DNA of 64,000 nt from Pseudomonadota bacterium (lineage in GTDB: Bacteria; Pseudomonadota; Alphaproteobacteria; Reyranellales; Reyranellaceae), in contig JAIUOY010000078.1 in assembly GCA_020160995.1 (NCBI GenBank), forward strand, positions 2,151-66,150, given 5' to 3'. A program made the translations under genes and the position numbers. Below, in pieces: positions 2,474 to 53,611 of the stretch. How positions within the stretch are numbered: the first letter of the stretch is position 1; each line of letters opens with the position of its first letter. The notes under the pieces are model-generated. The model worked only from the letters and a program-made list of their open reading frames with translations, did not search any database and was not told the origin of the DNA.

Positions 2474-2583
2474 GGAGGGGGTTCTACAGGCTGGGGGCGC
2501 GCGACTCCAGTACACCGGCGAGACTCAGCCCGCCGCTGCGAAATACACTATGCCTCGGTCGACAAGTTGCCTGTGTGCCTTAG

Positions 2584-4140
2584 TCAATTCTTCATAGAAC
2601 TATTGCAATACGGATGGACGAGCTGCCCATTGTCAGCGTGGCCCAATCCACCGTCCTGTACGCGTTGAATATGGTCATAAGAAACAGACTTCGCTGTATC
2701 TAGCAGACCGCCACAAATCGGGCACACAGGAGCCTTTTCGATGTGAGTACGATAGGCAATCTGAGATTTAGTGTCATCGGAAAATGAGGTGCTCTGAGGC
2801 TTACCAATTACGTCATAGATTTTGCCCTTCATGCCGAGGTGGGCGATGACGCCCGTCGGCGTAAGCTCACGCTCTGCCACTGCCTCATTGACTAGGTATT
2901 CAAACAGATCACGCATCCGAGGAATGCGTTGCTGCTTCCCAAGATTCTGCAAGACGATGCCGATGAGTGACTTGTTGTCGATCAAGAATCGCTCGATTGC
3001 CTTCCGGCCCACAGTGAACTTCTTGAACCAAGCGCCGTCATTGTTGCGCAGCTTTTCGGTTACGATGGCGGCCATGCCCAAGAAAAGAAACCGACTGTGC
3101 TTGCCCTTGTCGTTAGTAAAATAAACCGCTGGATGTAACCCTAGACTCTCTGCCTGGTTACTCGTCATGCGCCTGGCGATCTTGATGGCCGCCTTCATGG
3201 TCCTAACGGTCTCTTCGCCGGTTTCGTCATCCCCGTAGGACGATGGCGGATCAATCTTGTCCCTGCTTTTGCTGTTAACGACAGCAAGAAAGTCGATGAG
3301 CACCGACAGGGCATCTACCGGCGACGCGGAACCTCCTAACGGAAGATCCAGAGTCTTAAGGGGAATGTTGGGCTGAGGCTCGAAGAGCATCCTGTGCAAT
3401 TCGGCGGCGATGGCTTTTGTCTCAGCTTGCTTCTGCTCTCCGAAGGCCGAAGCATAGTTATGCCCGAAGCCCGCACGCACGATTGAGCGAGCGCCGATAG
3501 CGAGAGGCGTGCGCCGATATCGAATAAGCAGCTCCTCAGTTTCATCCAGTGGAGTGCCCTGCTGGTTGATCGCAAAAAACGAGTCTTCAGCTGTCTTGGC
3601 GGTGCCAATAACGGTCTGCAGCTGGATTGGCCGTGTGAACATTCGGCTCGCTCTACGTGCCGTAACGCTTTCCGAAGGCTTACCGATCAACTGCTCAAGT
3701 TCTTTGAACGGGTCGGCATGTGACATAATCAAAGCTCGCACGCGTTTCGCCATCGCGACTTGCTCTTTGGAAACCTCGCCGGAATAGAAATCCTTCGAGA
3801 TTGTTCCGTCGCCGTAGTCGTCCGATAGCCACGCGCAGAGAGCGCTAAGGCGGTGCGCGCCGTCGATCACAAATATGAAGTTCGCAGAGGGCCACAGGAT
3901 GAGAGATGGAATTACGTCGCCATCAAGAAAGCTCTTGATGAACTTTGTAACCTGGTCAGGTGACCAGTGGTTGGTTTCGCGCTGAAAATCCGGCTTCCGC
4001 AATAGCCGACGGATAGGCGAACCAGGAAGGAGTTGGGAAAGCTGAAGCTCGCGGATCGATTCCGGCTGAGCCGCGTCCTGGATTTCTCGCGCAAAATCTT
4101 CGCGCTGAATCATGGCGTCTAAGTTTACCCGTCGTGCCAT
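2584..4140 (-). CDS. GmrSD-like nuclease (DUF262/ParB-like N-terminus + C-terminal HNH)
   Basis: KPDFQRETNHW...IPSLILW...VIDGAHRLSAL (DUF262) and CPICG...DHIQRVQDGG...NGQLVHPYCN (HNH); visibly lower GC than flanks. Confidence 0.75.
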   Translation of the reverse strand: MARRVNLDAMIQREDFAREIQDAAQPESIRELQLSQLLPGSPIRRLLRKPDFQRETNHWSPDQVTKFIKSFLDGDVIPSLILWPSANFIFVIDGAHRLSALCAWLSDDYGDGTISKDFYSGEVSKEQVAMAKRVRALIMSHADPFKELEQLIGKPSESVTARRASRMFTRPIQLQTVIGTAKTAEDSFFAINQQGTPLDETEELLIRYRRTPLAIGARSIVRAGFGHNYASAFGEQKQAETKAIAAELHRMLFEPQPNIPLKTLDLPLGGSASPVDALSVLIDFLAVVNSKSRDKIDPPSSYGDDETGEETVRTMKAAIKIARRMTSNQAESLGLHPAVYFTNDKGKHSRFLFLGMAAIVTEKLRNNDGAWFKKFTVGRKAIERFLIDNKSLIGIVLQNLGKQQRIPRMRDLFEYLVNEAVAERELTPTGVIAHLGMKGKIYDVIGKPQSTSFSDDTKSQIAYRTHIEKAPVCPICGGLLDTAKSVSYDHIQRVQDGGLGHADNGQLVHPYCNSSMKN

Positions 4141-4423
4141 AGGTTTCCTTTTCGCCCCTTCTACCGCTGTTGCCAGAGGAACGTAGACGTCGTCCCAATC
4201 TAGCGAAACGCATGCACCCGCGACCGCTGCAAACACGCGCATGAAGGCTTCTCAACCGGGCGGTCCTCCCAATTTTATGGCGAGCATCATATACCGGAGG
4301 ACCACCCCGGCACTTGAAAGACCAGCTCGATGCGCGGCAACTGAATACCGTCACGAGATTATTCTCTCAAGTATACAATGCCCCAATTGCACGAACTGCT
4401 TCAGCTGGATTAACACCGGCTTC

Positions 4424-4817
4424 CACCCTTAGAGACGCCCTTCTACGAAGCGCTCCTCAGGATGAGGAAATACAAGGGCCTGGCCCCTCACCCGTACACC
4501 ACGCACACCGCGTTGCAGTCGACGATCTCGGCCGGCGTGTCGGCGGTGAGCGTGCCGGCGTCGCGGGCGGCGGGCACGAGGGCGAGCAGGCGTTGCTTCA
4601 GCGTTTCGAGGCCCGCGTCGTTGGGCCCGGCCTCGTGCGGTTCGACGGCGAGGTCGACGGCGAGACGGATCTTCTTCTGGCTCATGTGATTCCCCTTCCA
4701 CAGTTCGCCTCACCCTGAGGAGCGCTTCGCAGAAGCGCGTCTCGAAGGGTCGGCAACAGCATGACTGGCTCCCACCCTTCGAGACGCCGCGCGTTGCGCG
4801 GCTCCTCAGGGTGAGGG
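4424..4817. repeat. Palindromic repeat family A (CCTCAYCCTGAGGAG...GTCTCGAAGGRTG), three copies
   Basis: Copies at 4424-4467, 4708-4750 and 4773-4817; the last two are an inverted pair. Confidence 0.85.
4488..4685 (-). CDS. Small hypothetical phage protein
   Basis: 65-aa ORF between repeat copies, co-oriented with phage genes. Confidence 0.5.
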   Translation of the reverse strand: MSQKKIRLAVDLAVEPHEAGPNDAGLETLKQRLLALVPAARDAGTLTADTPAEIVDCNAVCVVYG

Positions 4818-5007
4818 CTAAACAAGCAGGTCGCCGGGCAGACCCTCCTTGGTCGTTCAGCCCTCCTTGGCTGGCCCGGCTTCCCGTTGCAGCGACCTTC
4901 CCCGGTCACCGAAACCTTCGACGAAACCTTGCGGCGATCATCCGACGCACAGCCGGTGAAACGCGAATCCTGCGCGCCGAACAATTTTGCAGATCAGCTC
5001 TCCTCGC

Positions 5008-5718
5008 CTAGCTCTCCTCAACCGTCAGCATCAGGTCGGGGAAGTTCTGCTCGAACACGGCGAGCGTCGCCTCCCAGCCGATCGCCGCCATGTGCGCCTT
5101 GAACTGCGCGTCGGAAATCGCCGGCGGAAGCGTCGGGAGGTTCGTCGCCGCCGTCGAGGCCGGCGCCGCGACGCGGTTCGCTGCCGCGCCGCCTTCACTT
5201 GCAGCACCGCTGCCCATCGCGACGCCCTTCGCTTCCTGCACCAGCGCGTGCAGCTTCAGCACCGTCATGCCCTCGGCGGCGGCGGTGGCCAGCCAGTCGC
5301 GCGCATTGTCGCGGTCGACGACGCCGACCAGCTCCTTCAGCTTCGACCAGCCGACCGGCCGCAGCTCCTGCCAGGTGAGGCCGAGATCGATCACGCTCTC
5401 GTAGATCGCGGCGAGATAGAGCGCCTTGCGCAGCTTGAAGCCGTGCCGCGCCTCGACGTAGCTGCGGAAGTCGGGATAGCCGGCGCCGCGATACCAGCGC
5501 TCGCGATGGATGCGCGCCAGCAGGCCGCCGAGACGAAAGGCATCGAAGTCGCTCGCCTCGGCGATCTCCGCCGCCAGCCGGTGCGCCTGCGCTTCGGAAA
5601 CATTCTCGATCTCGTGCGCGGTGCAGGTCAGCGGATCGGGCGCCAGCACGTCGCCTTTCAAGGCGCGCGCGAGCGGGACATGAGTCCCGGAGAGGGGAGT
5701 CTTGGTCGCAAGGTGCAT
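5008..5718 (-). CDS. Hypothetical phage protein (DUF3102-like helical motif)
   Basis: LGGLLARIHRERWY...YPDFRSYVEARHGFKLRKALYL...GWSKLKEL resembles phage DUF3102-type proteins. Confidence 0.6.
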   Translation of the reverse strand: MHLATKTPLSGTHVPLARALKGDVLAPDPLTCTAHEIENVSEAQAHRLAAEIAEASDFDAFRLGGLLARIHRERWYRGAGYPDFRSYVEARHGFKLRKALYLAAIYESVIDLGLTWQELRPVGWSKLKELVGVVDRDNARDWLATAAAEGMTVLKLHALVQEAKGVAMGSGAASEGGAAANRVAAPASTAATNLPTLPPAISDAQFKAHMAAIGWEATLAVFEQNFPDLMLTVEES

Positions 5719-5728
5719 CGTGTCGCCT

Positions 5729-5998
5729 CTAGCGGAGGAAGGCTTGCGTCGGTGCGGCGAAGGCCGCGGGATAGCGCGTGACGCCGCGCGTCGCCTTGAA
5801 GCGGCGGATGGCGTCGCGTTCCTCCTCGGGCGTGAGCCGCGGCTGGCGTGCCAGCTTTGCCATCAGCAGGCGGTTGGCGATCAGTTCGGCGGAACGACGC
5901 TTGTATTCCGCGCCGTTGCGGCCCGCCGCGCCTTCGCTTTCGCGTGCGACGGGCAGGGAAGACGGCGCAACTCCGCGCCGCACGATGACGACAGGCAT
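5729..5998 (-). CDS. Hypothetical phage protein
   Basis: ATG 8 nt downstream of a CCAAGGAGGG ribosome-binding site. Confidence 0.55.
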   Translation of the reverse strand: MPVVIVRRGVAPSSLPVARESEGAAGRNGAEYKRRSAELIANRLLMAKLARQPRLTPEEERDAIRRFKATRGVTRYPAAFAAPTQAFLR

Positions 5999-6030
5999 TC
6001 CAGCGACCCTCCTTGGTCTTTGCCAGAGTT

Positions 6031-6402
6031 TTACTTCTGCAACGTTTCTCCCGAAGCGCAAGGAATCCCGCTTAAGGAGGATTCCGGTTGCGGCGTGCAA
6101 TCGAGAGGCGTGCAAGCGATTGCAAGCCCCACCACCTGCAACGCGGCGCGCAGGTTGCCGATGTTGGGCGTGCGCTGGCCGCGCGCCCACGCGCCGATCG
6201 TGTCCTTGCCCAGCCCGGCATCGAGCGACACCTGTTCGCGCGCCAGCCCCCTCTTCTCGATCTCGCCGACAAGGCGATGCACCAGCGGATCGAGCGCGGT
6301 GCTGTGCGGCGTGGTTGTGGGGGCAGCGTCATGACCCCTCCGCCCTGTATGACAGGGCACCTCCCCCGCCGACGGGGGAGGAAGTTTGAGCGCGACGCTC
6401 AC
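6031..6402 (-). CDS. XRE-family helix-turn-helix protein with in-frame palindromic repeat near the N-terminus
   Basis: IEKRGLAREQVSLDAGLGKDTIGAWARGQRTPNIGNLRAAL is an HTH_3 pattern; GTG overlaps the ssb stop (GTGA). Confidence 0.7.
   Translation of the reverse strand: MSVALKLPPPSAGEVPCHTGRRGHDAAPTTTPHSTALDPLVHRLVGEIEKRGLAREQVSLDAGLGKDTIGAWARGQRTPNIGNLRAALQVVGLAIACTPLDCTPQPESSLSGIPCASGETLQK
6331..6381. repeat. Palindromic repeat family C (ACCCCTCCGCCCTGTATGACAGGGCACCTCCCC...GGGGAGG)
   Basis: Same core as copies at 9837, 10929, 25409 and 61381. Confidence 0.85.
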
Positions 6403-7214
6403 AGGCGCTCCGCGAGTCTTGCGACGTCGTAGCTGCGCGGCGCGAAGGCCGGCGCGGCGACAGGGGCGGCGGCGGGCGCGCGGCCGAGGCCCAGCGCGAT
6501 CAGGCGCGAGGCCGGCAGGTAGGGAAACTCCTGCTCGTAGTCGGCCGGCACGCCCTCGGCGCCGTAGCGTTCGGCCAGCGCGTCGAGCGGCGTGCGGTCG
6601 AGGAACTCGAACTCGGTGCCGACGCCGGGCGACAGGCCGTCGCCGCTGTCGAGCCGCGTCACCGCCAGGGTTGCGCCGGCCAGGCCCTCGCTGCCGAGCG
6701 TCGACGCCTTGAGCTGCAACTTCGCCAGCGTGCCCTTCTTGGCGACGAACAGCTTGCGCTGGTCGACCACGACGGTGCCCGCGCGGGGGCCGCGGCGGAT
6801 CGTGTAGGGCCGGTGGTCGATCACCGTGAAGGCCGCCACCAGCGCCGGCGGCCGGCCGCTGTCGCAGATCGGGCACGGCTCGCTGCCGCCGCCACTCCCC
6901 ATACCGTTGACGCACACGAAGGTCGCCCAGCGCCCGGCGAGCTGCACCGCATGTTCGTAGAGGCTGGGCACCGCCAGCAATCCATCCTCGTCGAGCGCGC
7001 CGTCGAGGAAGGTGATGCGCGCCGGCTCGTTCACGTCGATGCGAAAGCGATGCAGGCGGCGCTGCGCCTCGCGCCGCACCTCCTGCTCCGCGGCATCGCG
7101 CGCATAGGCGTCGTGGGCGGCCTTGCCGCGCAGCATCCAGCTCGGCGTGGAGGCAGAGCCGGGCGCGGGCGTTGCAGGCATCGGGGAAACGAAATCGGAA
7201 GCGACGTTGGACAT
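6399..7214 (-). CDS. Phage single-stranded DNA-binding protein (gp32-like, CPIC motif)
   Basis: ARITFLDG...LYEHAVQ...FVC...EPCPICD...AFTVIDHR...RKLFVAKK; AAGGAGG site before ATG 7214; replication-module context. Confidence 0.6.
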   Translation of the reverse strand: MSNVASDFVSPMPATPAPGSASTPSWMLRGKAAHDAYARDAAEQEVRREAQRRLHRFRIDVNEPARITFLDGALDEDGLLAVPSLYEHAVQLAGRWATFVCVNGMGSGGGSEPCPICDSGRPPALVAAFTVIDHRPYTIRRGPRAGTVVVDQRKLFVAKKGTLAKLQLKASTLGSEGLAGATLAVTRLDSGDGLSPGVGTEFEFLDRTPLDALAERYGAEGVPADYEQEFPYLPASRLIALGLGRAPAAAPVAAPAFAPRSYDVARLAERL

Positions 7215-7459
7215 CGAACGGTCCTCCTTGACCGATGGATACGGATGAACAGCGAACGCTTCCGACGTGTAGCCGCTCTCCGCAATCCTGCAAGCTTTGT
7301 GTCGCATGAGTTCATGCGTGCAATCGACTGGAGCTTGCATTTTTTGGACGATCAAACCACCAGCCGTATTTGACTACCCCGATCATAAACCGGCCTTGGC
7401 AACCATGCGTTGCTGTCCTTCCAACTTCCACATACCCTGTAGCTATGGGAGGTGGAGAA

Positions 7460-7966
7460 ATGGTGGACATCGTTACGGACGGCCAGATTCAAGGACTGCG
7501 GGAGCTTCCAAAAAAATTGGTCAACCCGAGAGCGCGGCAAAAGCATACAGAGCGGTTCATCACGCACGATTTCAAAGTGGAAAGCCTCGACGGCACCCAG
7601 AAATTCAGCATCTACAAACGCCAGAATCTGGCGGACTCCACGGACTTCTCAGTCGGAATTCGATGGGAAGGGCGAAGTGCCGAAATCACATTGGCACGTT
7701 ACAATGGCTCCAGCCATGAACATACCAATCACATTGAGGGCGATAAACTCTCCCATGTCTGCCATGTGCATCACGCGACCGAACGATATCAGATGGCGGA
7801 TCGCAAGCCGGAAGGGTACGCTACGGCCACTTCTGATTATATGAGCCTTGACGGAGCGTTTCGGTGTTTACTCGCCGATTGGAATATTCAGCAACCCAAC
7901 GCACCGGAGCCTTCCGGGCAGTCGGGCGATTGCCTGTTCGACGACGCTCCCAATGATGGAACGTGA
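7460..7966 (+). CDS. His-rich putative nuclease/toxin (DUF6978-like)
   Basis: LARYNGSSHEHTNHIE...CHVHHATERY motif; lower GC; ATGA-coupled to the next gene. Confidence 0.55.
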   Translation: MVDIVTDGQIQGLRELPKKLVNPRARQKHTERFITHDFKVESLDGTQKFSIYKRQNLADSTDFSVGIRWEGRSAEITLARYNGSSHEHTNHIEGDKLSHVCHVHHATERYQMADRKPEGYATATSDYMSLDGAFRCLLADWNIQQPNAPEPSGQSGDCLFDDAPNDGT

Positions 7967-8742
7967 TGGCTGATCTTTATACTGACATGGAGAAGTCGCT
8001 CTGCGAGGCGCTATGCGCGGAGGTGCGCATTGTCGCCCGTCCAAACAACGTGTTCGCTGTTTCAACCCCGTTGACCTTTCCGGATGGCGATAGCCTTCCG
8101 ATTTTCCTTCGCCGCCTCCCAGAAGGAGGCGTTGAGTTTACCGACATGGGCAATTCGCTCATGAGGTTAAGCTACGAGACCGATGCGCCGGCTCTCCGCG
8201 AAGGAACACGTGGCCGCATTCTATCTCAGTTGCTGGCCGAATTCGGCCTGGAGGACAGGAGGGGGGAGCTAGTGCTAGCTGTTCCTGGCCATCAGACTGG
8301 GCTAGGTGTCTTTAAGTTCAGCCAAGCACTCACTCGCGTTCATGACTTATCATTTCTTAATCGAGTGAATGTTGAGAGCACGTTCTACGAGGATCTTCGA
8401 AAGGACCTTGAGGAGATTGTTGGCGATCGTCGAATGATCTTGAACTACACGGTTCCGGCAATCGGGCCAGACTATCCAATCGACTACTTCATCCCCGGGT
8501 CGCGTCTGCCGCTTTATGTATTTGGGGTTCCGAATCAGGATAAAGCGAGACTAGCGACAATCGTACTTCAGCATTTATTGAGTAACGGTCAAATTTTCGA
8601 TTCCGCCGTAGTCTTCCGCGACGCTGACCTACTGCCTCGGAGAGATTTCAACCGATTGGCCAACGTTGCAAACGATATTGTAACATCCGCCGATGCAACC
8701 GAAGACTTGACGAGAAAAATTAAGCATAGGCTTGCCGCTTAG
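7963..8742 (+). CDS. DUF1828/DUF1829-like protein
   Basis: VSTPLTFPDGDSLPIFL...FTDMGNSLMRL N-terminal pattern; C-terminal PIDYFIP region is restriction-endonuclease-like. Confidence 0.65.
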   Translation: MMADLYTDMEKSLCEALCAEVRIVARPNNVFAVSTPLTFPDGDSLPIFLRRLPEGGVEFTDMGNSLMRLSYETDAPALREGTRGRILSQLLAEFGLEDRRGELVLAVPGHQTGLGVFKFSQALTRVHDLSFLNRVNVESTFYEDLRKDLEEIVGDRRMILNYTVPAIGPDYPIDYFIPGSRLPLYVFGVPNQDKARLATIVLQHLLSNGQIFDSAVVFRDADLLPRRDFNRLANVANDIVTSADATEDLTRKIKHRLAA

Positions 8743-9107
8743 GGGCGCGAGCATTGTAGGCGTGGAAACGGCAACAGCGTCGTTCGGAGCAATCGACATC
8801 GAGTGGTCCTCCTTGATCGGTGAATCGTGAATGCCGTCAGGAGTAGCCGCAATCCTGCAAGCTTTGTGTCGGTGCCTCGATGTTTGACGGGCGCCGCGCG
8901 CTGTTTCATACAACCCGCATGATCGAGAAGGACACCCACATCGTTGCCCGGCCGGCCGGTATCCCCTTGGCGGGATGCCGGGAAGCGGATCGGACGAACT
9001 AGCAACGAACTAGCCACGCCGATTGTCTGTCTCGGCCTCGCCCCTCAGGGACGAGGCTTTTCGGCGTGGAAAAGTGCCTCGTCCTCCCTTTGTCTCTGGA
9101 GACGAAC

Positions 9108-9839
9108 ATGGCACAGAACATCTACGACAATCCCGACTTCTTCGCCGGCTACAGCCGCCTGCCCCGCCAGGTCGACGGCCTCGACGGCGCGCCGGAATGG
9201 CCGGCCATCCGCCGCCTGCTGCCCGATCCGGCGGCCAAGCGCGTGGCCGATCTCGGCTGCGGCTTCGGCTGGGCGTCGCGCTGGTTTCGCGAGCACGGCG
9301 CGGCGTCGGTCCTGGGCGTCGACCTCTCGCGCAACATGATCGCGCGCGCGAAGGCGGACACGAACGATTCCGCCATCGACTACCGGATCGCCGATCTCGA
9401 CACGCTCGACCTGCCGGCGGCGGCGTTCGATCTGGTCTACAGCGCCCTCACCTTCCACTACGTGCAGGACTTCGCGCGGCTGGTCCGCACCATCCACGCC
9501 GCGCTGGCGCCGGGCGGCGATCTGGTGTTCACCATCGAGCATCCGATCTACATGGCCGCCGTTCATCCGCGCTGGACCTCGGACGAAGACGGCCGCAAGA
9601 CCTGGCCGGTAAACGGCTACGCCCGCGAAGGCGAACGCCGCACCGACTGGTTCGCCCCGGGCGTGCTGAAGCACCACCGCACCGTGGCGACCACGATCAA
9701 CACGCTGATCGATACGGGCTTCGCCTTGCGGCGGATGGAAGAGTTCGCCCCCACGCCCGGCCAGATCGCAGAGAACCCGAAGCTGGCCGAAGAACTCGAA
9801 CGGCCGATGATGCTGCTGGTCTCGGCGCGCAAGACCTGA
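9108..9839 (+). CDS. Class I SAM-dependent methyltransferase
   Basis: VADLGCGFG motif I; LGVDLSRNM; MAQNIYDNPDFF N-terminus. Confidence 0.9.
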   Translation: MAQNIYDNPDFFAGYSRLPRQVDGLDGAPEWPAIRRLLPDPAAKRVADLGCGFGWASRWFREHGAASVLGVDLSRNMIARAKADTNDSAIDYRIADLDTLDLPAAAFDLVYSALTFHYVQDFARLVRTIHAALAPGGDLVFTIEHPIYMAAVHPRWTSDEDGRKTWPVNGYAREGERRTDWFAPGVLKHHRTVATTINTLIDTGFALRRMEEFAPTPGQIAENPKLAEELERPMMLLVSARKT

Positions 9840-9944
9840 CCCCTCCGCCCTGTATGACAGGGCACCTCCCCATTCAAATGGGGAGGTGTCGTCGTCTTAC
9901 GACGACGGAGGGGTCATGCGGTCGGGTCGAGCGCGTCGGGTCGA

Positions 9945-10685
9945 TCAGCCGCCCAGGCCGAGCGCGCGCTTGGCGCTGTCGAACCAGCCTTCGACCGTGC
10001 CCCACCAGCCGCTCTCGGCGTAAACGATGTCGGCGCGGATTTCCTGCTTGAAGTCCGGCGGTGGCTGGAACAGCGCGGCGACCGGCATCTTCCAGGTCAC
10101 GCGGCGTCCGTCCTGGTCCACCACGCCGGTCGTGTTCTCGATCCGGGCCGCCGTTATCGTCACCGTGACGTAGCGGTTGGCCATGGCGGTCTTGAACATC
10201 GCGACGAAGGGATTGTCGCCGGCCGGCTGGGGCTTCTTCGAGTTCGCTTCGATCAGCGCGGCCAGCCGATAGGATGAGTCGCCCAGCCGCTCGAACGTGA
10301 AGGTCTTCAGCTCGAACGGCCCGTCGGGCGGTGTCGCGTCCGGCTTCCATGTCTTGGCGGCCTTCACCGGATCGTCGAGTTCGAGGGAAACGGTGCAGGT
10401 GAGCATGTCGCCGCGGGTGCCGCGCACGCCTTTCACCCAGCGTATGCCGTCGGGCAACGCGCCTCCCGCCGCCGCAGGCCCCTTCTCGCACTCCTTCAGC
10501 GGATCGGCGCCATCCTTGTCTTTCGCCAATCCGGCCATCAGGGCCGCGCCCTGCGCCGAGAATGCGAACTCGACATCGAGCTTGCCCGTGCCGTCCTTGC
10601 GAAAATCGGAATTCGCCGCCATCTCGAAACACCCGCCCAGCGACACGGCGGCAACGACGACCATCAAAGTTTTTATGCAACGCAT
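9945..10685 (-). CDS. LppM/DUF3153-like lipoprotein
   Basis: Lipobox SLGGC; DFRKDGTGKLDVEF and final NTTGVVDQDGRRVTW motifs. Confidence 0.65.
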   Translation of the reverse strand: MRCIKTLMVVVAAVSLGGCFEMAANSDFRKDGTGKLDVEFAFSAQGAALMAGLAKDKDGADPLKECEKGPAAAGGALPDGIRWVKGVRGTRGDMLTCTVSLELDDPVKAAKTWKPDATPPDGPFELKTFTFERLGDSSYRLAALIEANSKKPQPAGDNPFVAMFKTAMANRYVTVTITAARIENTTGVVDQDGRRVTWKMPVAALFQPPPDFKQEIRADIVYAESGWWGTVEGWFDSAKRALGLGG

Positions 10686-10724
10686 GCCGGAACTCCCTCG
10701 CTGGCGACTCTCGTTCGGGATTTA

Positions 10725-10847
10725 CTACCCTGCACCGTCGGCCAGCGCACGCTTCTCGGCATAGAAGTCGATGAAGGCGCGCATCTTGGTCGACAGATGC
10801 GCGCGCGACGGCAGGTAGAGATGAAAGCCCGGGATCGGCGGACACCA
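10725..10847 (-). pseudogene. LysR-type regulator C-terminal remnant
   Basis: WCPPIPGFHLYLPSRAHLSTKMRAFIDF is a typical LysR C-terminus; no N-terminus; abuts the duplicated segment. Confidence 0.75.
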
Positions 10848-10928
10848 CGCCCGACCAGATCGCAGAGAACCCCAACCTCGCCGAAGAACGCGAACGGCCG
10901 ACGAGGCTGCGGGTCTCCGCACGCAAGG

Positions 10929-11047
10929 CATGACCCCTCCGCCCTGTATGACAGGGCACCTCCCCATGTGAATGGGGAGGAGGATGATTCTTCGCCTCCC
11001 CATTCAGATGGGGAGGTGGCGCCGTCTGCGGCGACGGTGGGGTCATG
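10929..11047. repeat. Palindromic repeat family C, composite copy
   Basis: Two CCTCCCCAT...ATGGGGAGG hairpins inside TGACCCC...GGGGTCA ends. Confidence 0.85.
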
Positions 11048-11061
11048 CCGGCGCCCCGTGC

Positions 11062-11943
11062 TCACTCACGCAGCTCCGCCGCCGCGACGGCGAAGATCTC
11101 GTCGGCCGCGCCGACCGCCACGAAATGGCCGGCGCCCTGGACCGGATGCCACACCGCGCCCGGCATGCGGTCGGCCACGTCGCGGTTGATCGAGGCCGCG
11201 ACCAGCCGGTCGTCGGTGCCCTGCCAGAAATGGACGCGGCGTTCGATCTTCGTCACGTCGAAGGGCCAGCGGCGGTAGAGCAGCTCGCTGTCGCGCGCCA
11301 GGCCGTGGCTGCCCTGCGCGAAGCATTCGGCGGACATCAGCTGGAACGCCGTCACGACATTGGGCCGGTCGAGGATCTCGCGGTCGTCGTCGTTCACCGC
11401 CTTGCGGACCTGCGCGGTGAAGAGCTTGCGGAAGCGCGTCGCGCTGAGGCCGAGGGCGGCGTACATCAGGCCGAAGGCCGGCCGGAAGCCCAGCGCCAGC
11501 GCGCCGCCGAACGCATCGGCCCTGGAGAGACGGTCGGCCGCCCAGTTGTCGCCGAACGCGCCGTAGCTGCCGCCGGCAATGCTGGCGACATGGCGCAGCC
11601 GCGCGGGATCGATATAGGCCGCCGCCGCCAGCGCCCACGGCCCGCCTTCCGACCAGCCGGTCACGCCGAACATGCGATGGCCCAGCGCATCGGCGATCGT
11701 CGTCAGGTCGTCGGCCCAGCCGGCGAAGCTGCGCGGCTCCTGCGGGGTCGAGCGGCCGATGCCCGGCCGGTCGGCGCAGACCAGCCGCAGCCGGTGCTTC
11801 GTGGCGGCGTCCACGAACAGCAGCGCTTCGAGCCGGCTGCTCGGTCCGCCGTGATTGTGGATGACGAGCGGGCCCGCGGCATCGCCGACCTCCAGGCAGG
11901 CCAGCGTGCGCCCGTCGCGGGTCGCGATGTCGCGCTGCGCCAC
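11062..11943 (-). CDS. Alpha/beta hydrolase
   Basis: HGGPSS oxyanion motif, GWSEGG nucleophile elbow, WQGTDD and GAGHF catalytic Asp/His. Confidence 0.9.
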   Translation of the reverse strand: MAQRDIATRDGRTLACLEVGDAAGPLVIHNHGGPSSRLEALLFVDAATKHRLRLVCADRPGIGRSTPQEPRSFAGWADDLTTIADALGHRMFGVTGWSEGGPWALAAAAYIDPARLRHVASIAGGSYGAFGDNWAADRLSRADAFGGALALGFRPAFGLMYAALGLSATRFRKLFTAQVRKAVNDDDREILDRPNVVTAFQLMSAECFAQGSHGLARDSELLYRRWPFDVTKIERRVHFWQGTDDRLVAASINRDVADRMPGAVWHPVQGAGHFVAVGAADEIFAVAAAELRE

Positions 11944-26737: not shown

Positions 26738-28015
26738 TCACTCCACCTCCAGCTCCCCCACCCTCTCCATCATCTCCGAAAAGTCCGTCGTCCAATCGAA
26801 GTTCCAGTTCACGGTGAACGAACCCGTCTCGCCGTTGCGGCCCTTCAGGATCGAGACTTCGCGCTGCTTGATCGTCTCGGCGCTCTCGGGCTGCATCAGG
26901 CCCAGCGCCAGCGAGGAGAGTTGCAGGATCGCGTCGGAGTAGCCGATGTCGTCGCCGGTCTGCGGCGGCTTCTTCCCGCCTCCGCCGCTCCCGCTCCCGC
27001 CCTTCGCCGGCCGCGCGAACTGCCAGGAGCACGCCGTCGGCGCGAGGTCGCAGATGTGCTGCTTGATCAGCGACGCATTCTCCGCCACGCGCTTGAAACG
27101 GTCGCGCTCGGTGGGGTGCGTCAGGAGATAGGCGCCGTCGATCACCACGAAGTCGGGCTTGAGCTGGCGGCAGAGCGCATGCAGGTCGGCCACCGACGCC
27201 GCCAGGTTGCCGTCGACGACATGGAACGGCACCGGGCTTTGCGCGCTCTCGACGAGGACGTGCTTCATCTGCCGATACTGCGTCGTCGTGAGCGCTGCAT
27301 CGCGGATGCCCTTGAACGGCAGCTTCGCGTGGATGGCCAGCAGGCGCTGCACGATGACCAGCGGCTTGATCTCCATCGAGACGAACAGCGGCACCTTGCC
27401 CTGCACCGCCCAGGCATGCAGCGCCATCCACAGCATGAACCACGTCTTGCCCGCCGCGGGACGCCCCGCCAGCCCGATCATGTCGCCGGTGCCGAGGCCG
27501 CCCGTCATCGCATCGAGCGTCGGCCAGCCGAGTTGCAGGCCCATGGTGCCCGCGTCCATCATCTTGGCCTTGAAGGCCTGCATGATCGCGTCCTGCGCGC
27601 GGCGATAGTCCATCACCAGCGCGCCGTTGTTCTGCACCGACAGCGCCATCACCGCGTTGCCCAGCAGGTTCAGCGCCTCGCGCGGATTGGCATTCGCGCC
27701 GGCGAGGTGCTTGTGATGGACCTCGGCCAGCAGCGCCACGAGGCTGCGGTGCAGATGGTTGTCGCGCGCGCGGTCGAGATAGAAGGCGGCGGGCTGCGTC
27801 TGTGCCGCGAGATCGAAGCCGGTGTCGGCCTTCACCAGCGCGAAGTCCGGCAGGGTGCCGTAGGTCTTCACGTGGCGGTCGAAGTAATTCCACAGGCGCT
27901 CCTCGTGCCCCGCGAAGAGATGCGCGACCGGCCCGTGCTTCAGGAGCGTCTCGACCCGCCCCTCGCCGATCACGGCCGCGAGATAGCGCTGCGCGGAGGA
28001 GAGCATCAGAGACAC
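26738..28015 (-). CDS. dnaB: DnaB-like replicative helicase (phage)
   Basis: Walker A GRPAAGKT, FVSME, Walker B VVIDGAYL, IGYSDAILQ, LKGRNG. Confidence 0.92.
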   Translation of the reverse strand: MSLMLSSAQRYLAAVIGEGRVETLLKHGPVAHLFAGHEERLWNYFDRHVKTYGTLPDFALVKADTGFDLAAQTQPAAFYLDRARDNHLHRSLVALLAEVHHKHLAGANANPREALNLLGNAVMALSVQNNGALVMDYRRAQDAIMQAFKAKMMDAGTMGLQLGWPTLDAMTGGLGTGDMIGLAGRPAAGKTWFMLWMALHAWAVQGKVPLFVSMEIKPLVIVQRLLAIHAKLPFKGIRDAALTTTQYRQMKHVLVESAQSPVPFHVVDGNLAASVADLHALCRQLKPDFVVIDGAYLLTHPTERDRFKRVAENASLIKQHICDLAPTACSWQFARPAKGGSGSGGGGKKPPQTGDDIGYSDAILQLSSLALGLMQPESAETIKQREVSILKGRNGETGSFTVNWNFDWTTDFSEMMERVGELEVE

Positions 28016-36037: not shown

Positions 36038-39000
36038 TCAGTATCCCCGTGCGGTCCAGCTCACCTGGCCCGAAAGGCGGTTGCCGGCGGCGTCGAACAA
36101 CAGAATCTTGAAGCTTGTCGGATAGGGCACGCCGGCGAAGTCGTAGATCGCGTAGCGCGCCGCGGTGCCCACGGGCGTCGTCTGGATCGAACTCACCGAG
36201 GTGAACGGCGTGGTGAAGAGGACGGTCGTGCCACCGCTGTCGCCGGCGCCGGCCGAGACCATCCCGGCATCCGTCTTGGTCTTGGAGGCAAGCTTCACCG
36301 ACATCCCGCCGATCGCGCACACCGCGCCGGTGCTGGCAAAGCCCAGGGTCACGCGCAGATGGCGGAAATTCGCCACGTATTGCTGCGAGCCGGTGCCGAC
36401 CATGGTCCAGGTCAGCCCGTCGAGGCTGCTTTCGAGCGTCGTGGTCATGGCCACCGCGCCGGAGACGTCGGCCTTGCTGACATTGATCGTCACCAGCGTG
36501 GCGTCGACCGTCGAGCCGTAGTCGAAGGTCTCGGCGTAGGAGGCGGTGCCCGGGCCGGGATCGAGCCAGTCGAGGTAGCCGGCGTCGATCTGGTCCTGCG
36601 GCTGGTCCCAGCCGCGGTTCGTGAAGTGCGTCAGCCAGGTCTCGCCGGTATGGGTCGGGCCGTAGAGCACGCCGCCCTGCAGGGTCATGTTGACCTTGGT
36701 GCCCGCAAAGATCGACGGCCATTCGACGCGCAGCAGATAATCCGGCGGCTGGTTGACCACCGCCGTCACCGACGTCGGCACGCCTTCGTTGCCGCCGCTG
36801 TCGACCGCCGCCACCCAGTAGGTGTAGGTGCCGGCCGCGCTCTCGAACACGCTGGTGAAGGTGCCGGACTTGTCGCCGATCAGTGTGCCGGTCGACCACG
36901 CCCCGCCCTTCTTCACCACGTAGCGGTCGATGGGCAGCGCCGAGGTCGCGCTGCCCCACTTCAGCAGCACGTTGTTGTCGATCACCTGCGCGGCGAGGCC
37001 GGAAACGGCGGTCGGCGCGGCGACGTTGAGCGTGGCCGAGCCCGCGCCGCCGTAATTGCCCGCCTTGTCGATGGCCGCGACCCAGAAGGTGCGGCCGCCG
37101 CCCCAGCGCACCGGCGAGGTGAAGGTGGTGCCCTTGACGCGCGAGACGAACGCGCCGCTCGCCCAGTCGCCGCCCTGGCGGATTTCGTACTCCTCGACCT
37201 GGAAGGAGGCGGCGCCGCCGGTCCAGGCGATCTTGTAGAGGTCGGACTCCAGCGCGACCGAGACCGAGGGTGTCGGCGGTGCGGCGACCACCACGTCGAG
37301 GCTTGCCGGCACGGGGCTGTAGATGCCCTGCGGCCGCGTTACGGCGGCGACCCAGTAGGTGTGCGTGCCCGCCCCGACGCCCTTCTCGGTATAGCGCAGC
37401 TCGCGCGGCGTGCCGACCTTGGTGGCGTCGGCCCAGCTCGCGCCGCGCCGCACTTCGTAGTAGTCGACGTTGAGGTCCTCCACCGCGTCCCATTTGATGG
37501 CGACGCCGTCGGGATCGTAGACGGGCTGCAGGCCGGTGACGTTGCTGGGCGGCACCGCGGTGGTGAGCGTGATGTCGGGCGCTACCATCCACGCGCTGGT
37601 CTTGCCGTTCAGCGCCTTGGCCCGCACGCGGAAAGCGTAGACGCCTTCCTGGCTGTCCTGATACTCGATGCTGGTCATCGAGGTCGTGCCGACGGTCTGG
37701 TAGTCGATGTCCTGCGGCCCCTTGACCTGCACCTCGTAGGCATAGACGCGGCCGTCGTCCGACTTCTCCCACGACAGGATCGCCGCCGCGCGCACCGCCG
37801 AGCCCACCCGATAGAGGCGCATCATGGAGGATGGCCCGGTCGGCGCCACGATCGGCCCGGTCGGCGTCACATTGTAGGGCGGCGGCGGGACGACGAGCCC
37901 CTTCTCGACGCGATCGAACTTGGCGGGGTCGTGGAACACGCCCATCGCCTCGAAGGTCGCCGGCCCGACCTCGATGTTGGAGACCAGCAGGAACTGCCGC
38001 GCCTCCAGCGACGTCGAGGTGATGGCCCACACCGCGCCGGCCAGCGGCACCTCGTGCAGCGGCGTCGACCAGGTGAAGGTCGCCGTCTCGCCCGCCGCGT
38101 TGGTCAGCGTGCGCTTCTGCAGGGTGCCGTCGGGCATGGTGATGTGCAGCGTGTAGCTGAACGCCGCCAGCACCGCGTAAGCCTGGTCGACCGTCACGCT
38201 GTCCGGCGTGGCCGAGACGATGCGGCCGCCGAAGATCTGCTGGGCATAGTTCTCGTCGGCGATCGACACGATGTCGCCGGGGAACTTGTCGGCCAGTTCG
38301 AGGCCGGAGCGGAAATGCACCGTCTCGGTCGCCGTGCGCTCGGTGTCGAGCACCCACTTGCCGGTGCGGATCGCCTGCCCTCGATTTGTGCAGCCATAGG
38401 CCACGATGTCGATCTGGCGCACGCCGTAGAGCGCCACGCCCTCGGGATCGTCGACCCATTCGACGGCGGGACGATAGGCGTCGGCCGGATCGTTCCACAC
38501 GACCTTGGCCGTGGTGTGCCGCGCCTTGAGCGAGGTGCCCTCGTACTTGAACTCGCCGCCCAGCACGTTGGCGTTGGTGAACAGCGCCACCGGCGACTTG
38601 GGCATGTCGGCGGTTGCCCGCACCGCGCCGGACGACCAGAACGGCATGCCGCGGAAGATCGACGCCATCGTGTTGACGACGGCATAGGCTTCCTGCCGGC
38701 TGTTCAGCAGCATGTTGCAGGTGTAGCGCGGCTCCTTGCCCCCGGCGCCGTCGTCGACGCCGAGATAGGCGCCGCTCTCGTCGACCGCGTCGCAATACTG
38801 GCCGATGGTGTAGAGGTCCCACTTCCAGGGATTGACCGCCGCCGGATCGAGGCCGAGCCCGTAGCGCGTGTTGGTCAGCAGGTCGTAGAAGCACCAGGCG
38901 GGATTGTCGGACCAGTCGGTCTTGAAGGTGCCGTTCCAGTCGCCGGTATAGCTGCGGGTGAGCGGATCGTAGTTCGACGGGATCTTGATCAGCAGGCCCT

Positions 39001-39805
39001 TGACGTCGTAGGAGCGCGCCGGCGCGGATCCCGAGAACTGCGCGGTGTCGATCTGCATGCCGCAATAGGCGACGTTGGGATGGGCGAGCTTGCCGTCGAC
39101 CACTTCGGTGATCGAGGTCCAGAAGAGTTTGTCCTTGAACCATTCCTCCGGGTCGTCGTCGTTCTCGCGCTGGATCTTGATGTCCCACGGCGCGCCGCCG
39201 GCCGGCAGCGCCACGCGATAGTCGCGCTGGTAGGTCGAGGTCGTCTTGCCGTGGAAGCCGACATAGTGCGTCTGCACGAAGGCGCCGCCGTGCGCCTTGA
39301 CGGAGATGAAGAAGTTCGACGTGTAGGGGTTGATGTCGCCCGTCTCGTTGTTCTGCATGTAGAGCGCGGGCGTCGAGATCTTGACGATGACGGCGTTGGC
39401 CTGCGGATTGGAAACGGTGCGCGTGACGCCGCCGTTGGACTTGCGGATCTCCAGCCCCTGCCCACCGCCCAGCGACACCGTGTTGCGGCTCGACGGGAAG
39501 CCCGCCATGTAGGTCTGGACGCCGAAGGGCGCGCCGTAGCGCGTATCCCAGGCGACGCCGGTGAAGTTGAAGGTGCCGTCGGCGTTCATGAGCGGCGTGT
39601 CGTCGAAGAAGATCGACTGGTCCTCGGCGACCAGACCCTTGATCGGCCCTTCGCACCAGAGATCGAGGAAGCGCGCGATGGAGCGCGACTGCAGGGAATT
39701 GGGCGCCTCGACGGGCGTGCGCCCCACCGGCTCCGACGCCGCCCCGCCCTTGCCGCCGCTGCCGCCGCGCCCGAAGACGGTGTGGCTCGGGTTGATGGAC
39801 CTCAC
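36038..39805 (-). CDS. Tail tip / host-specificity protein (lambda J-like) with FN3-type domains
   Basis: DLWCEGPIKGL; WSDNPAWCFYDLL; EPRYTCN; GCTNRGQAIRTGKW; GTG start after AAGGAGG. Confidence 0.95.
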   Translation of the reverse strand: MRSINPSHTVFGRGGSGGKGGAASEPVGRTPVEAPNSLQSRSIARFLDLWCEGPIKGLVAEDQSIFFDDTPLMNADGTFNFTGVAWDTRYGAPFGVQTYMAGFPSSRNTVSLGGGQGLEIRKSNGGVTRTVSNPQANAVIVKISTPALYMQNNETGDINPYTSNFFISVKAHGGAFVQTHYVGFHGKTTSTYQRDYRVALPAGGAPWDIKIQRENDDDPEEWFKDKLFWTSITEVVDGKLAHPNVAYCGMQIDTAQFSGSAPARSYDVKGLLIKIPSNYDPLTRSYTGDWNGTFKTDWSDNPAWCFYDLLTNTRYGLGLDPAAVNPWKWDLYTIGQYCDAVDESGAYLGVDDGAGGKEPRYTCNMLLNSRQEAYAVVNTMASIFRGMPFWSSGAVRATADMPKSPVALFTNANVLGGEFKYEGTSLKARHTTAKVVWNDPADAYRPAVEWVDDPEGVALYGVRQIDIVAYGCTNRGQAIRTGKWVLDTERTATETVHFRSGLELADKFPGDIVSIADENYAQQIFGGRIVSATPDSVTVDQAYAVLAAFSYTLHITMPDGTLQKRTLTNAAGETATFTWSTPLHEVPLAGAVWAITSTSLEARQFLLVSNIEVGPATFEAMGVFHDPAKFDRVEKGLVVPPPPYNVTPTGPIVAPTGPSSMMRLYRVGSAVRAAAILSWEKSDDGRVYAYEVQVKGPQDIDYQTVGTTSMTSIEYQDSQEGVYAFRVRAKALNGKTSAWMVAPDITLTTAVPPSNVTGLQPVYDPDGVAIKWDAVEDLNVDYYEVRRGASWADATKVGTPRELRYTEKGVGAGTHTYWVAAVTRPQGIYSPVPASLDVVVAAPPTPSVSVALESDLYKIAWTGGAASFQVEEYEIRQGGDWASGAFVSRVKGTTFTSPVRWGGGRTFWVAAIDKAGNYGGAGSATLNVAAPTAVSGLAAQVIDNNVLLKWGSATSALPIDRYVVKKGGAWSTGTLIGDKSGTFTSVFESAAGTYTYWVAAVDSGGNEGVPTSVTAVVNQPPDYLLRVEWPSIFAGTKVNMTLQGGVLYGPTHTGETWLTHFTNRGWDQPQDQIDAGYLDWLDPGPGTASYAETFDYGSTVDATLVTINVSKADVSGAVAMTTTLESSLDGLTWTMVGTGSQQYVANFRHLRVTLGFASTGAVCAIGGMSVKLASKTKTDAGMVSAGAGDSGGTTVLFTTPFTSVSSIQTTPVGTAARYAIYDFAGVPYPTSFKILLFDAAGNRLSGQVSWTARGY

Positions 39806-39828
39806 AATGCGCCTCCTTCGACGACCAT

Positions 39829-39958
39829 CCTCATCCTGAGGAGGCGCAACGCGCCGTCTCGAAGGATGGGCAACAGGCACGGTGCGCGTTCCCATCCTTC
39901 GAGACGCTCGCTCGGCGCGGCGTATCCTCCGCGCTCTCGATCGCTCCTCAGGATGAGG
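39829..39958. repeat. Palindromic repeat family A, inverted pair
   Basis: Copies at 39829-39870 and 39891-39958. Confidence 0.85.
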
Positions 39959-40216
39959 CTTTGGCTGTCCACAGCTCGGCTCCCGCATAGGCCTCAACAG
40001 CCGACAGCGTAGCGGCGGCGGGTGCTGGATGAGGCCGATGCGGCCGCGGTGGCTCTGAATCGGACCACCAGGCTCCGGACATCTGGCGAACCGGCGCGGG
40101 GGCCGGGGCGGCGCCGTCGCTTCCGTCTCGACTGCGGTGAAGAGGGCCGGAAAGGCAGCGGCCCCTCCCGACGGGAGGCGGCCGGGGTCGCTCCGGGCGG
40201 GACGGTCGCGGGCCGA

Positions 40217-46143: not shown

Positions 46144-46907
46144 CAGCGGGTCCTCGAAACGGCGGGAAAGCCCGAGAACGGCAGCTCGCCGTCGGCGCCG
46201 TAGCGCGCCTTGCAGCCCGAGAGCTTGTGGCTGCAGACGTCGAGATGGGCCGCGTCGGTCGGCGCGTCCTTGGCGGTGAACCTGGCGTCGCCGGCATAGG
46301 GACAGGTGCCGTAGACGAAGTCGTTCGCCGCCGCGTCCCACTTGCGATAGGTCTCGGTGCAGGCGTCGCGGATGATCTGGCGGCGCGGCAGCATCACGCC
46401 CTGCTGGTCGAGCGCGGCCGAGAGGTCGAACTCGATCATGCCCTTGGTCTGCGAGACCTTGCGGTCGACGTGGTAGACGTCGGGGATGTAGTGCGTGTCG
46501 GGGTCGGCGTCGGGCTGGCCGTCGAGATATTTCTTCAGCGTCTTCCAGCGCGTGACCCTGGCGCCGAGCAGGTCGTTGTACTGCACGACGGCGGCCTGCA
46601 GGAGGCCGAGCGCATTGCCGACGGTGAGCTTGGGCCTGGGCAGCTGGCCGCGGCCCGCCCATTCGAAGCCTTCGGCCACGATGGGATGCGGTGCGTAGGT
46701 GTGGCCCTTCCACATCGGCGCGGCGCCGTCGACCAGGCCGGAGCAGAGATACCAGATCTCGGTGCCGCCGATCGGCGCGGTGTCGATGTCGAACAGCACG
46801 ACGATGTCGCCGGGCGTGAGCGACTGGTTGTCGGCGGCGAGCCCCCGCGTGGCGGTGAACAGCTCGTCGCCATGCGGCAGCACGCCATGCGGCGCGGTGG
46901 AGGACAT
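46143..46907 (-). CDS. Minor tail protein (lambda L-like)
   Basis: PRPKLTVGN; LPRRQI...C...C..C......C Fe-S Cys pattern; FSGFP. Confidence 0.93.
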   Translation of the reverse strand: MSSTAPHGVLPHGDELFTATRGLAADNQSLTPGDIVVLFDIDTAPIGGTEIWYLCSGLVDGAAPMWKGHTYAPHPIVAEGFEWAGRGQLPRPKLTVGNALGLLQAAVVQYNDLLGARVTRWKTLKKYLDGQPDADPDTHYIPDVYHVDRKVSQTKGMIEFDLSAALDQQGVMLPRRQIIRDACTETYRKWDAAANDFVYGTCPYAGDARFTAKDAPTDAAHLDVCSHKLSGCKARYGADGELPFSGFPAVSRTR

Positions 46908-46940
46908 GCGGGGTCTCCGGGAGCGATGCCGGTGGCGCCG

Positions 46941-50153: not shown

Positions 50154-50501
50154 CTAGAGATCGAACACCTGCTCGAAGGTCGCCTGCACGTTGCCGGTGG
50201 TGCCGCTGGTCTTCTCGCGGCTCCAGCTCTCGCACTTGACCTGGAGCGGCGCCTCGCCCGGCGGCGTCCACAGGAACGGCAGGTAGCCCTTCTGCGCCTT
50301 GAGGAAGCTGTTGATCTCCAGGCACTCGCTCCACGCGATGCCCTGCCACGCCACCGTCCACTTCTCGGCGACGGTGTTCAGCCCGTCGCCCACCCTCTGC
50401 TCGTAGCCGTTGCCGTAGGTGTTCTTCAGCACGCGCGGCGCATAGCTCACCGGCGTGCCGAAGGTGCAGTCGATGGCGGGAAACTGAACCGTCGTCGTCA
50501 T
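50154..50501 (-). CDS. Distal tail protein (lambda M-like)
   Basis: YGNGYEQRVGDGLN...W...FL...GYLPFLWTPP...ATFEQVF. Confidence 0.92.
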   Translation of the reverse strand: MTTTVQFPAIDCTFGTPVSYAPRVLKNTYGNGYEQRVGDGLNTVAEKWTVAWQGIAWSECLEINSFLKAQKGYLPFLWTPPGEAPLQVKCESWSREKTSGTTGNVQATFEQVFDL

Positions 50502-53557: not shown

Positions 53558-53611
53558 GGCTCCACCCCTCCTTGGGTTCGGCGCCCTGCGGCGCGTCGTC
53601 AGCTTTTCAGC

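Follow-up and report, generated by a model that had tools for sequence, protein, structure and literature searches.

The exclusion genes of phage lambda, rexAB, and others similar to them are carried in prophage immunity regions, and Campbell-type integration is the mode of entry of elements that carry a copy of the end of their target gene, such as phages at transfer RNA or gene 3' ends. Both invite comparison with the two-gene cassette described here, which occupies positions 7305-8742 of a 64,000-nucleotide stretch of DNA from a Reyranellaceae bacterium (called “the window” throughout; all positions given without a locus number refer to it) and lies between two copies of the leader of a neighbouring gene labelled “ssb.” For its genes, A and B, the nearest described system is PDC-M24, one of 145 candidates in PADLOC, proposed from its embedding in BREX, DISARM, and type I restriction-modification (R-M) loci (10.1101/2024.01.29.577857). 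A second point of comparison is DS-6B/HipAD, in which a DUF3037+DUF1829 protein places a DUF182x-type domain in a validated two-gene defence system (DefensePredictor, PMC13092281); its architecture is other than that of the window pair, its partner is a HipA kinase, and DUF1829 was not detected in B. The literature on DUF1828, DUF6978, and PDC-M24 yielded no functional study of this pair.

Taken whole, the best explanation, and one that we favour with moderate confidence, is that the cassette is a PDC-M24-type foreign operon, an anti-phage or exclusion module, that was gained recently by a single crossover within a core of 22-25 nucleotides (nt) in the ssb leader. Please note that the gene pair has already been catalogued as a defence candidate and that its presence alone adds little. 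What is new from this locus is the anatomy of the insertion together with its natural empty sites, with filled and empty alleles coexisting in almost identical wastewater strains.

The segment at 7305-8742 (1,438 bp) has a GC content of 0.525, compared with 0.704 in the left flank and 0.662 in the right; the lower GC reported in an earlier note on this DNA holds (52.5% vs. 66.2-70.4%). It carries two overlapping genes on the plus strand: A (7460-7966, +), which encodes a His-rich, DUF6978-like protein of 168 residues related to PDC-M24A (phrog_27326, E=1.9e-41), and then B (7966-8742, +), which encodes a DUF1828 protein of 258 residues in the PDC-M24B family, with a possible PD-(D/E)xK-like fold in its C-terminal part (PF08861, E=5.8e-16). 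They are preceded by the cassette's own upstream region (7305-7459, +), which is 155 nt long, has GGAGG 6 nt ahead of the gene A ATG, and is missing in all empty-site relatives. The junction of the genes reads GTGATG and not, as had been reported, ATGA: TGA and ATG overlap by 1 nt, or the overlap is 4 nt (GTGA) if the GTG is the start. No transposase was found within 7305-8742 and no recombinase gene in or adjoining the cassette, and blastn of positions 5000-9000 against phage records gave no match. The segment is a horizontally acquired two-gene operon, foreign to the resident chromosome. A GC-rich hairpin with a T-rich tail occurs inside gene B at 8113-8131; no other terminator-like site was seen in 7100-9150, and its occurrence is compatible with chance.

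With respect to identity, B matches the PADLOC model PDC-M24B (E=1.5e-13 and 4e-13) over residues 16-150 only, and A matched no PADLOC model at E≤0.1. Among the relatives of A, 10 of 48 match PDC-M24A (best 3.5e-6), all 35 relatives of B match PDC-M24B, and no other PADLOC family was matched. The window genes are adjacent and co-oriented with A first, as in PDC-M24, and viral genomes keep the same order: B lies immediately downstream in 38 of 38 IMG/VR loci with A, and A immediately upstream in 33 of 33 loci with B. The earlier note had held that independent occurrence of the genes would speak against a module; in these 71 viral loci, A and B are never apart. We take the cassette to be a divergent member of the PADLOC candidate PDC-M24, with A as the DUF6978-like and B as the DUF1828 component. 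It would represent a divergent branch, since A stays below every PADLOC threshold and B matches over its N-terminal half only. Neither A and B nor ssb and the genes around it had a match in NCBIfam.

For protein B, Pfam identifies DUF1828 (PF08861) at residues 34-125 with 59 bits against a cut-off of 22 (E=5.8e-16), and this part of the “DUF1828/1829-like” description given earlier stands. The DUF1829 part does not: residues 129-258 have no Pfam match at E≤0.1, and the homologues list PF08861 only. In the structure predicted by AlphaFold2 (AF2; pLDDT 88.5, pTM 0.57), an N-terminal DUF1828 domain is followed by a 45-residue helix and a C-terminal alpha/beta domain. The best Foldseek matches are Can2, VC1899/Card1, SfsA, Cdn1, BstEII, and Cas4, all of them PD-(D/E)xK proteins, with modest scores (probability up to 1.0, E ~1e-3, TM ~0.36; for Can2, probability 1.0 and E=1.6e-3). 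Residues E137, D143, Y170, D173, and K193 are conserved; the strand PLYVFGV is without the usual acidic residue, and the (D/E)xK of beta-3 is not apparent. These matches point weakly to a Can2/Card1-like PD-(D/E)xK fold in the C-terminal half of B, which may be degenerate. Like the Can2/Card1 CRISPR ancillary nucleases (PDB 8q44, 8bao, 1xmx), B has an N-terminal domain and a C-terminal domain, the latter putatively of PD-(D/E)xK type. It differs from them in that its N-terminal domain is DUF1828 and not an established CARF domain, that no cyclic-oligoadenylate system lies nearby, and that the canonical (D/E)xK is not evident.

The cassette had been called nuclease-like. For the His-rich protein A this is unsupported, and the expectation as to which protein has such a fold must be corrected: the nuclease-type fold, with the reservations just given, sits in B, not in A. 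The AF2 model of A (pLDDT 92.4, pTM 0.83) is mainly beta, and Foldseek against PDB gave no fold match for it (best E=0.27, no nuclease among the matches). In BFVD, its best match is an uncharacterised phage protein (E=1.8e-3), and neither Pfam nor NCBIfam gave a nuclease match. Assignment of A to the HNH or His-Me finger nucleases was considered and dropped, there being no nuclease profile and no PDB fold match. Sequence and profile searches of both A and B against PDB returned chance-level matches only. Pfam DUF6978 (PF22398) scores 22 bits against A (E=2.2e-4), below its gathering cut-off of 29.6, and many A homologues carry a precomputed PF22398 label; the relation is likely real but distant. 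In the family alignment, K18, R54, R80, N82, G83, H86, H88, N90, H102, and H104 are invariant, and the recognisable motifs are RYNGxSHxHxN and HxHxATERY. The two HxH pairs, which would lie on adjacent strands, suggest a metal site, and the invariant cluster of four His with Asn and Arg is probably a metal centre.

A and B are both members of large families, and the pair is also found in Gillisia, in a Burkholderia multivorans prophage, in Pseudomonas phages, and in several other genomes. Overlapping stop and start codons recur in three of the loci that we compared (L001, L003, and L004). Of 29 non-redundant viral loci, 18 have as their closest sizeable upstream gene in the same orientation one for a cI-type repressor with a helix-turn-helix (HTH) domain and an S24 peptidase. 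Pseudomonas phage 5399 has the order cro / cI - small open reading frame (ORF) - A - B, and in the B. multivorans prophage the pair is likewise behind a cI-type repressor. In temperate phages, then, the pair has the same slot as exclusion genes of the lambda rexAB type, co-oriented just downstream of the repressor; unlike them, it has no sequence or fold relation to RexA or RexB, and the window copy is chromosomal with no repressor. Other surroundings are varied. At L087:3486-8261, A-B comes directly after SIR2-like and DUF87 (HerA-like) genes, with a Gp49/HTH toxin-antitoxin-like pair upstream and IS21 downstream, and the locus looks like a small defence island. In Gillisia (L001), an AIPR (Abi-like) gene is found just upstream; in L086 the pair is among transposases, and in L003, L085, and L088 it stands alone between housekeeping genes. 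The closest homologues of the cassette, with 65-71% amino acid identity (e.g., L013), are at an unrelated site with no shared flanks.

Because the pair sits behind cI-type repressors, and because some chromosomal copies lie beside SIR2-HerA, AIPR, or GmrSD-like genes, we infer a defence activity. Most likely, A and B would act together as a constitutively expressed anti-phage or exclusion module. Within it, B would be a nucleic-acid-binding sensor or effector, and A a partner enzyme or regulator that provides a metal-dependent activity or controls it; the overlap of stop and start codons would allow A to be made in a fixed ratio with B. As for the toxin-partner anti-phage module proposed earlier, what stands is a foreign, tightly coupled module of a kind found in defence contexts, but not its phage-responsive capture, to which we return below.

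The alternative that survives best makes the pair a simple toxin-antitoxin (addiction) module, or else a lysogeny accessory, for example a modulator of the repressor or of induction, with no anti-phage role. We consider this unlikely. It would accommodate two small coupled genes on mobile DNA that are often alone between housekeeping genes, as in L003, L085, and L088, and it would accommodate their constant position behind cI. However, many chromosomal copies have no repressor nearby and some adjoin SIR2-HerA, AIPR, or GmrSD-like genes, and PDC-M24 was defined from copies inside BREX, DISARM, or type I R-M loci. Typical antitoxins are also smaller and less conserved than either protein.

The arrival of the cassette is recorded at its borders, where both the genes and the repeats were confirmed: it is indeed, as the earlier note had it, a two-gene cassette between duplicated ssb leader copies with an identical 25-mer. 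The left copy (7161-7304, -) is a live leader, with promoter-like core, AAGGAGG, and ATG, that continues into the first 18 codons of ssb. The right copy (8743-8871, -) is a relic leader with 19 codons, and its end coincides exactly with the gene B stop codon. The 25-mer is found at 7280-7304 (22 nt of true homology plus CGG) and, as a direct repeat with 25/25 identity, at 8847-8871; it has just two copies in the 64 kb with 3 mismatches allowed, where 0 are expected by chance. A further direct repeat, 84% identical, is formed by 7210-7240 and 8795-8825. Read on the ssb strand, the similarity of the copies spans the 25-mer, TCAAGGAGGACC, the ATG, and then ~18-19 codons, with 101 of 118 ungapped positions identical (~86%) and several indels. 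The only stretch identical in both is the 22-nt core CGACACAAAGCTTGCAGGATTG, and the repeat reads as a 25-mer because a 7-nt deletion places a second CGG beside the core. This deletion removes exactly 7 nt between the invariant CTTGCAGGATTG and CGGCTAC of the right copy; every other leader retains them, and the spacer loss noted earlier is confirmed and is unique to this copy among the leaders compared. The right copy is also without a 10-nt block and has further indels relative to the left. The core includes a near-palindrome around AAGCTT and is kept in all ssb leaders as part of a promoter-like region.

It is important to recognise that these leaders fall into two classes. Class I (the window left copy, L008, L093, L095, and L097) has CGGCTACACGTCGGA, the 10-nt block TGTTCATCCG, and an ssb that starts MSNVA or MSIVA; class II (L009, L089, and L092) has CGGCTACTCCTCGAC, no 10-nt block, and an ssb that starts MSIAPNDAV. 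The left copy is the resident class I allele, with 143/144 identity to the single copy of L093 and 93% to that of Reyranella massiliensis 521. The right copy has an identity of 0.89 to L092 and 0.86 to L009/L089, all class II, and of 0.83-0.86 to class I. Its relic ORF, which the earlier note had recognised, is real; it begins MSIAPNDAV..., and its first nine residues are those of the L009 ssb. We read the right copy as the natural class II allele of another lineage that was brought in with the cassette, and not as a decayed fresh duplicate of the left copy, because the flanks are >99.6% identical to those of an empty-site strain and yet the copies differ by 14% plus indels. If the CTTGCAGGATTG/CGGCTAC pair is the promoter, the relic promoter is probably dead, having lost the 7-nt spacer; were it alive, its transcripts would run antisense across B and A.

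Relatives with a single leader copy, which the earlier note had recommended looking for, do exist. Scanning species-representative genomes with the ssb protein gave R. massiliensis 521 and two Reyranella metagenome-assembled genomes, and metagenome contigs scanned for the pattern of the leader core gave L093, L095, and L097, in which ssb adjoins the methyltransferase gene with no cassette. An empty site with a single leader is present in six related sequences: R. massiliensis 521 (L008), L093, L095, L097, and two wastewater contigs. Collinearity of R. massiliensis 521 with the window extends over 20 kb at ~91%; 7304-8846 and 2511-4471 are missing from it, and one 24-25-nt stretch of its DNA matches both core copies of the window. 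The distance from ssb start to methyltransferase start is ~327-342 nt in the empty-site relatives, which equals the 1894 nt of the window minus 1567. L093, from which the cassette is absent, is 98.4% identical to the window in the left flank at the nucleotide level and 98.5% in ssb at the amino acid level.

Closer still are the wastewater strains. Two wastewater runs contain contigs (depth 8-10) that join 7279/7282 to 8847/8850 inside the shared 22-25 bases; each of these empty-form contigs has two single-nucleotide differences (7178 G>A and 9016 A>G) in 515-626 nt, with flanks ~99.6% identical. The filled form occurs in nine other runs, and the four that were aligned (X1, X3, X5, and X9) show zero differences from the window. 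The Logan contigs used here are assembled from 31-mers, and since these are longer than the repeat, a collapse in assembly is an unlikely source of the empty-site joint. We interpret the cassette as a presence/absence polymorphism among near-identical strains. It is absent from every more distant relative examined, and a single recent gain would explain this much more economically than would precise losses on five or six occasions.

The sequence of events that we propose is as follows. The resident chromosome would have had one ssb leader at the start, as in the six related sequences. Donor DNA from another Reyranella lineage, probably a circle that had looped out between flanking repeats, would have brought in the cassette linked to the leader and the first 19 codons of the donor's ssb, which now form the right copy and would have served as the homology arm. 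One Campbell-type crossover within the promoter core of 22-25 nt common to both lineages, for which 7280-7304 is the proposed site, would then have integrated this DNA and given resident upstream DNA, core, donor leader and 5' relic, cassette, core, resident leader, and intact ssb, in that order. As in Campbell-type integration, the insert lies between direct repeats, of which one is resident and one was brought, the target gene is intact, and there are precise empty sites. It differs from the integration of phages in having no integrase and in its arm, which consists of the leader and initial codons at the 5' end of a protein gene; moreover, the crossover seems confined to 22-25 identical bases of arms with ~86% identity.

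It might be argued that the 22-25-nt core is the att site of a trans-acting site-specific recombinase (integron-, Xer-, or integrase-like) and that no homologous recombination took place. The joints do fall exactly within a short identical core, there is the near-palindrome around AAGCTT, and other cassettes are flanked by 46-nt and ~105-nt repeats. Against this, neither the cassette nor the DNA next to it has a recombinase gene, and the other loci have repeats of unrelated sequence and length, which fits homology arms better than one att site. All ssb leaders, moreover, retain the core as part of a promoter-like region. We therefore consider such a recombinase improbable.

We give still less credence to the proposal of the earlier note that the module owes its position to capture at an early promoter of a phage, with the duplicated ssb leaders rendering its expression responsive to phage transcription. 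The cassette is within ~155 nt of the conserved ssb leader core, and phage-like genes (DnaB, tail J, tape measure, and tail L) are present at 24-64 kb of the window. However, the cassette and the live ssb promoter point away from each other, and the cassette comes with 155 nt of upstream DNA and a ribosome-binding site of its own. The relic promoter, which is without the 7-nt spacer, would yield antisense RNA only. A strict sigma-70 consensus scan of 7100-9150 found no promoter, and in phages the pair is linked to a cI-type repressor gene and not to early promoters. Moreover, ssb, which had been counted as part of the phage, is a chromosomal gene conserved across Reyranella and does not belong to an evidently active phage: ssb and its neighbours, with host genes around them, are found in at least seven Reyranella-like sequences.

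An origin in situ, by a long target-site duplication or a tandem leader duplication at insertion with subsequent decay of the right copy, is in our estimation just as hard to credit. Direct repeats do flank the insert and the right copy does have deletions, but that copy has the diagnostic states of the other allele class (MSIAPNDAV, no 10-nt block, CTACTCC), and empty-site strains with >99.6% identity in the flanks leave too little time for 14% substitutions and several indels. Insertion of a transposon or insertion sequence with target-site duplication was rejected, with no transposase present and with repeats of 129/144 nt that are 86% identical and belong to different allele classes.

Several considerations weigh against our preferred reading, that of a PDC-M24-type defence operon gained by a single crossover. 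Window A reaches no PADLOC model, and B matches PDC-M24B over the N-terminal 135 residues only; PDC-M24 is moreover itself a candidate, one of 145, and its name implies no mechanism (10.1101/2024.01.29.577857). The nuclease-fold match of B is weak (TM ~0.36, pTM 0.57) with no apparent (D/E)xK, and B may not cut anything; the role of A as partner enzyme or regulator is a guess. No RNA runs with the cassette were found. The searches turned up no donor genome in which a class II ssb adjoins the cassette, and an exact 36-mer from gene A was unmatched in the contigs of JGI metagenomes. The circular intermediate is deduced and none was observed, and the same scar would be expected from a trans-acting site-specific recombinase that used the core. 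Likewise, repeated precise loss between the repeats may also leave data such as these, which fit a gain.

The window is not the only place where the pair stands between repeats. Bracketing repeats were seen in 3 of 8 distinct non-phage chromosomal cassettes: the window (129/144 nt), L088 (46 nt), and L001 (~105 nt). In L088, the 46-nt direct repeat (6862-6907 and 8287-8332; 45/46 identical) brackets another A-B cassette, and its first copy is the present 3' end and stop codon of an upstream B12-dependent methionine-synthase-like gene, with the second a relic end; we see in it the same gene-preserving architecture as in the window. In L001, the Gillisia cassette is bracketed by a ~105-nt direct repeat (4844-4945 and 6327-6430) of ~83% identity, which could be an unrelated intergenic element. 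Together, and in what is a small sample, the two loci hint at a general arm-mediated route. As a tentative proposal, and one that may well prove wrong, we suggest that PDC-M24-type cassettes spread without a recombinase of their own, as small circles that carry a homology arm from the end of a previous host's neighbour gene and re-insert by one crossover, for which as few as 22-25 identical bases would suffice, leaving the target gene intact and a relic copy behind. The value of the window in this respect is that the putative crossover can be mapped to a promoter core of 22-25 nt and that the relic arm points to a donor from another lineage, which together provide a concrete, testable model for the recombinase-free movement of small defence cassettes.

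Turning to the neighbours, the resident ssb (6399-7214, -; 271 residues; phrog_17226, E=3.6e-43) has an amino acid identity of 81-98.5% in L008-L010, L093, L095, and L097, and 41 phage matches by tblastn. One phage homologue, RcZahn gp57, is annotated as “T4 gp32-like” and is located between primase and helicase. There was no Pfam match; a profile search of PDB gave the T4 gp32 core (1gpc) as its sole match, a weak one (E=0.4), and the protein has a C-x12-C-x2-C motif. The “ssb” label is plausible, resting as it does on the annotated phage homologue and the weak 1gpc match. On the other side of the cassette, the resident flank carries a class I S-adenosylmethionine-dependent methyltransferase (9108-9839, +; Methyltransf_11, E=6e-23), which is collinear in L008, L093, L095, and L097.

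Phage-type genes are found at 24000-64000 of the window, including a DnaB-like helicase (26741-28015), a tail J-like gene (36041-40216), tail L (46146-46940), and a tape measure gene (50501-53611). They are interspersed with host-like genes (sulfatase, GNAT, HATPase/STAS), and together with the distant ssb they look like an old, broken-up prophage.

About 3 kb from the cassette is a GmrSD-like gene of low GC content (2584-4242, -), with DUF262/GmrSD_N (E=1e-13) and a weak HNH match. The segment that contains it (2511-4471) is an insertion missing in R. massiliensis 521, L095, and L097; since both this insert and the cassette are absent from relatives, the window lineage would have gained two defence-type inserts within 6 kb.

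An intergenic repeat of ~55 nt, similar to repetitive extragenic palindromes, occurs in both orientations at ~10995-11047, 9865-9918, 6328-6381, 4708-4816, and 4415-4467. L008-L010 have it too at their homologous loci, and it adjoins the variable segments. The DNA upstream of the ssb leader is variable in Reyranella: L009 has genes for proteins of 131 and 186 residues there (L009:8907-9896), and in L010 an alpha/beta hydrolase gene abuts the leader (L010:9828-9853) and the counterpart of window 7295-11070 is missing. This spot seems prone to rearrangement.

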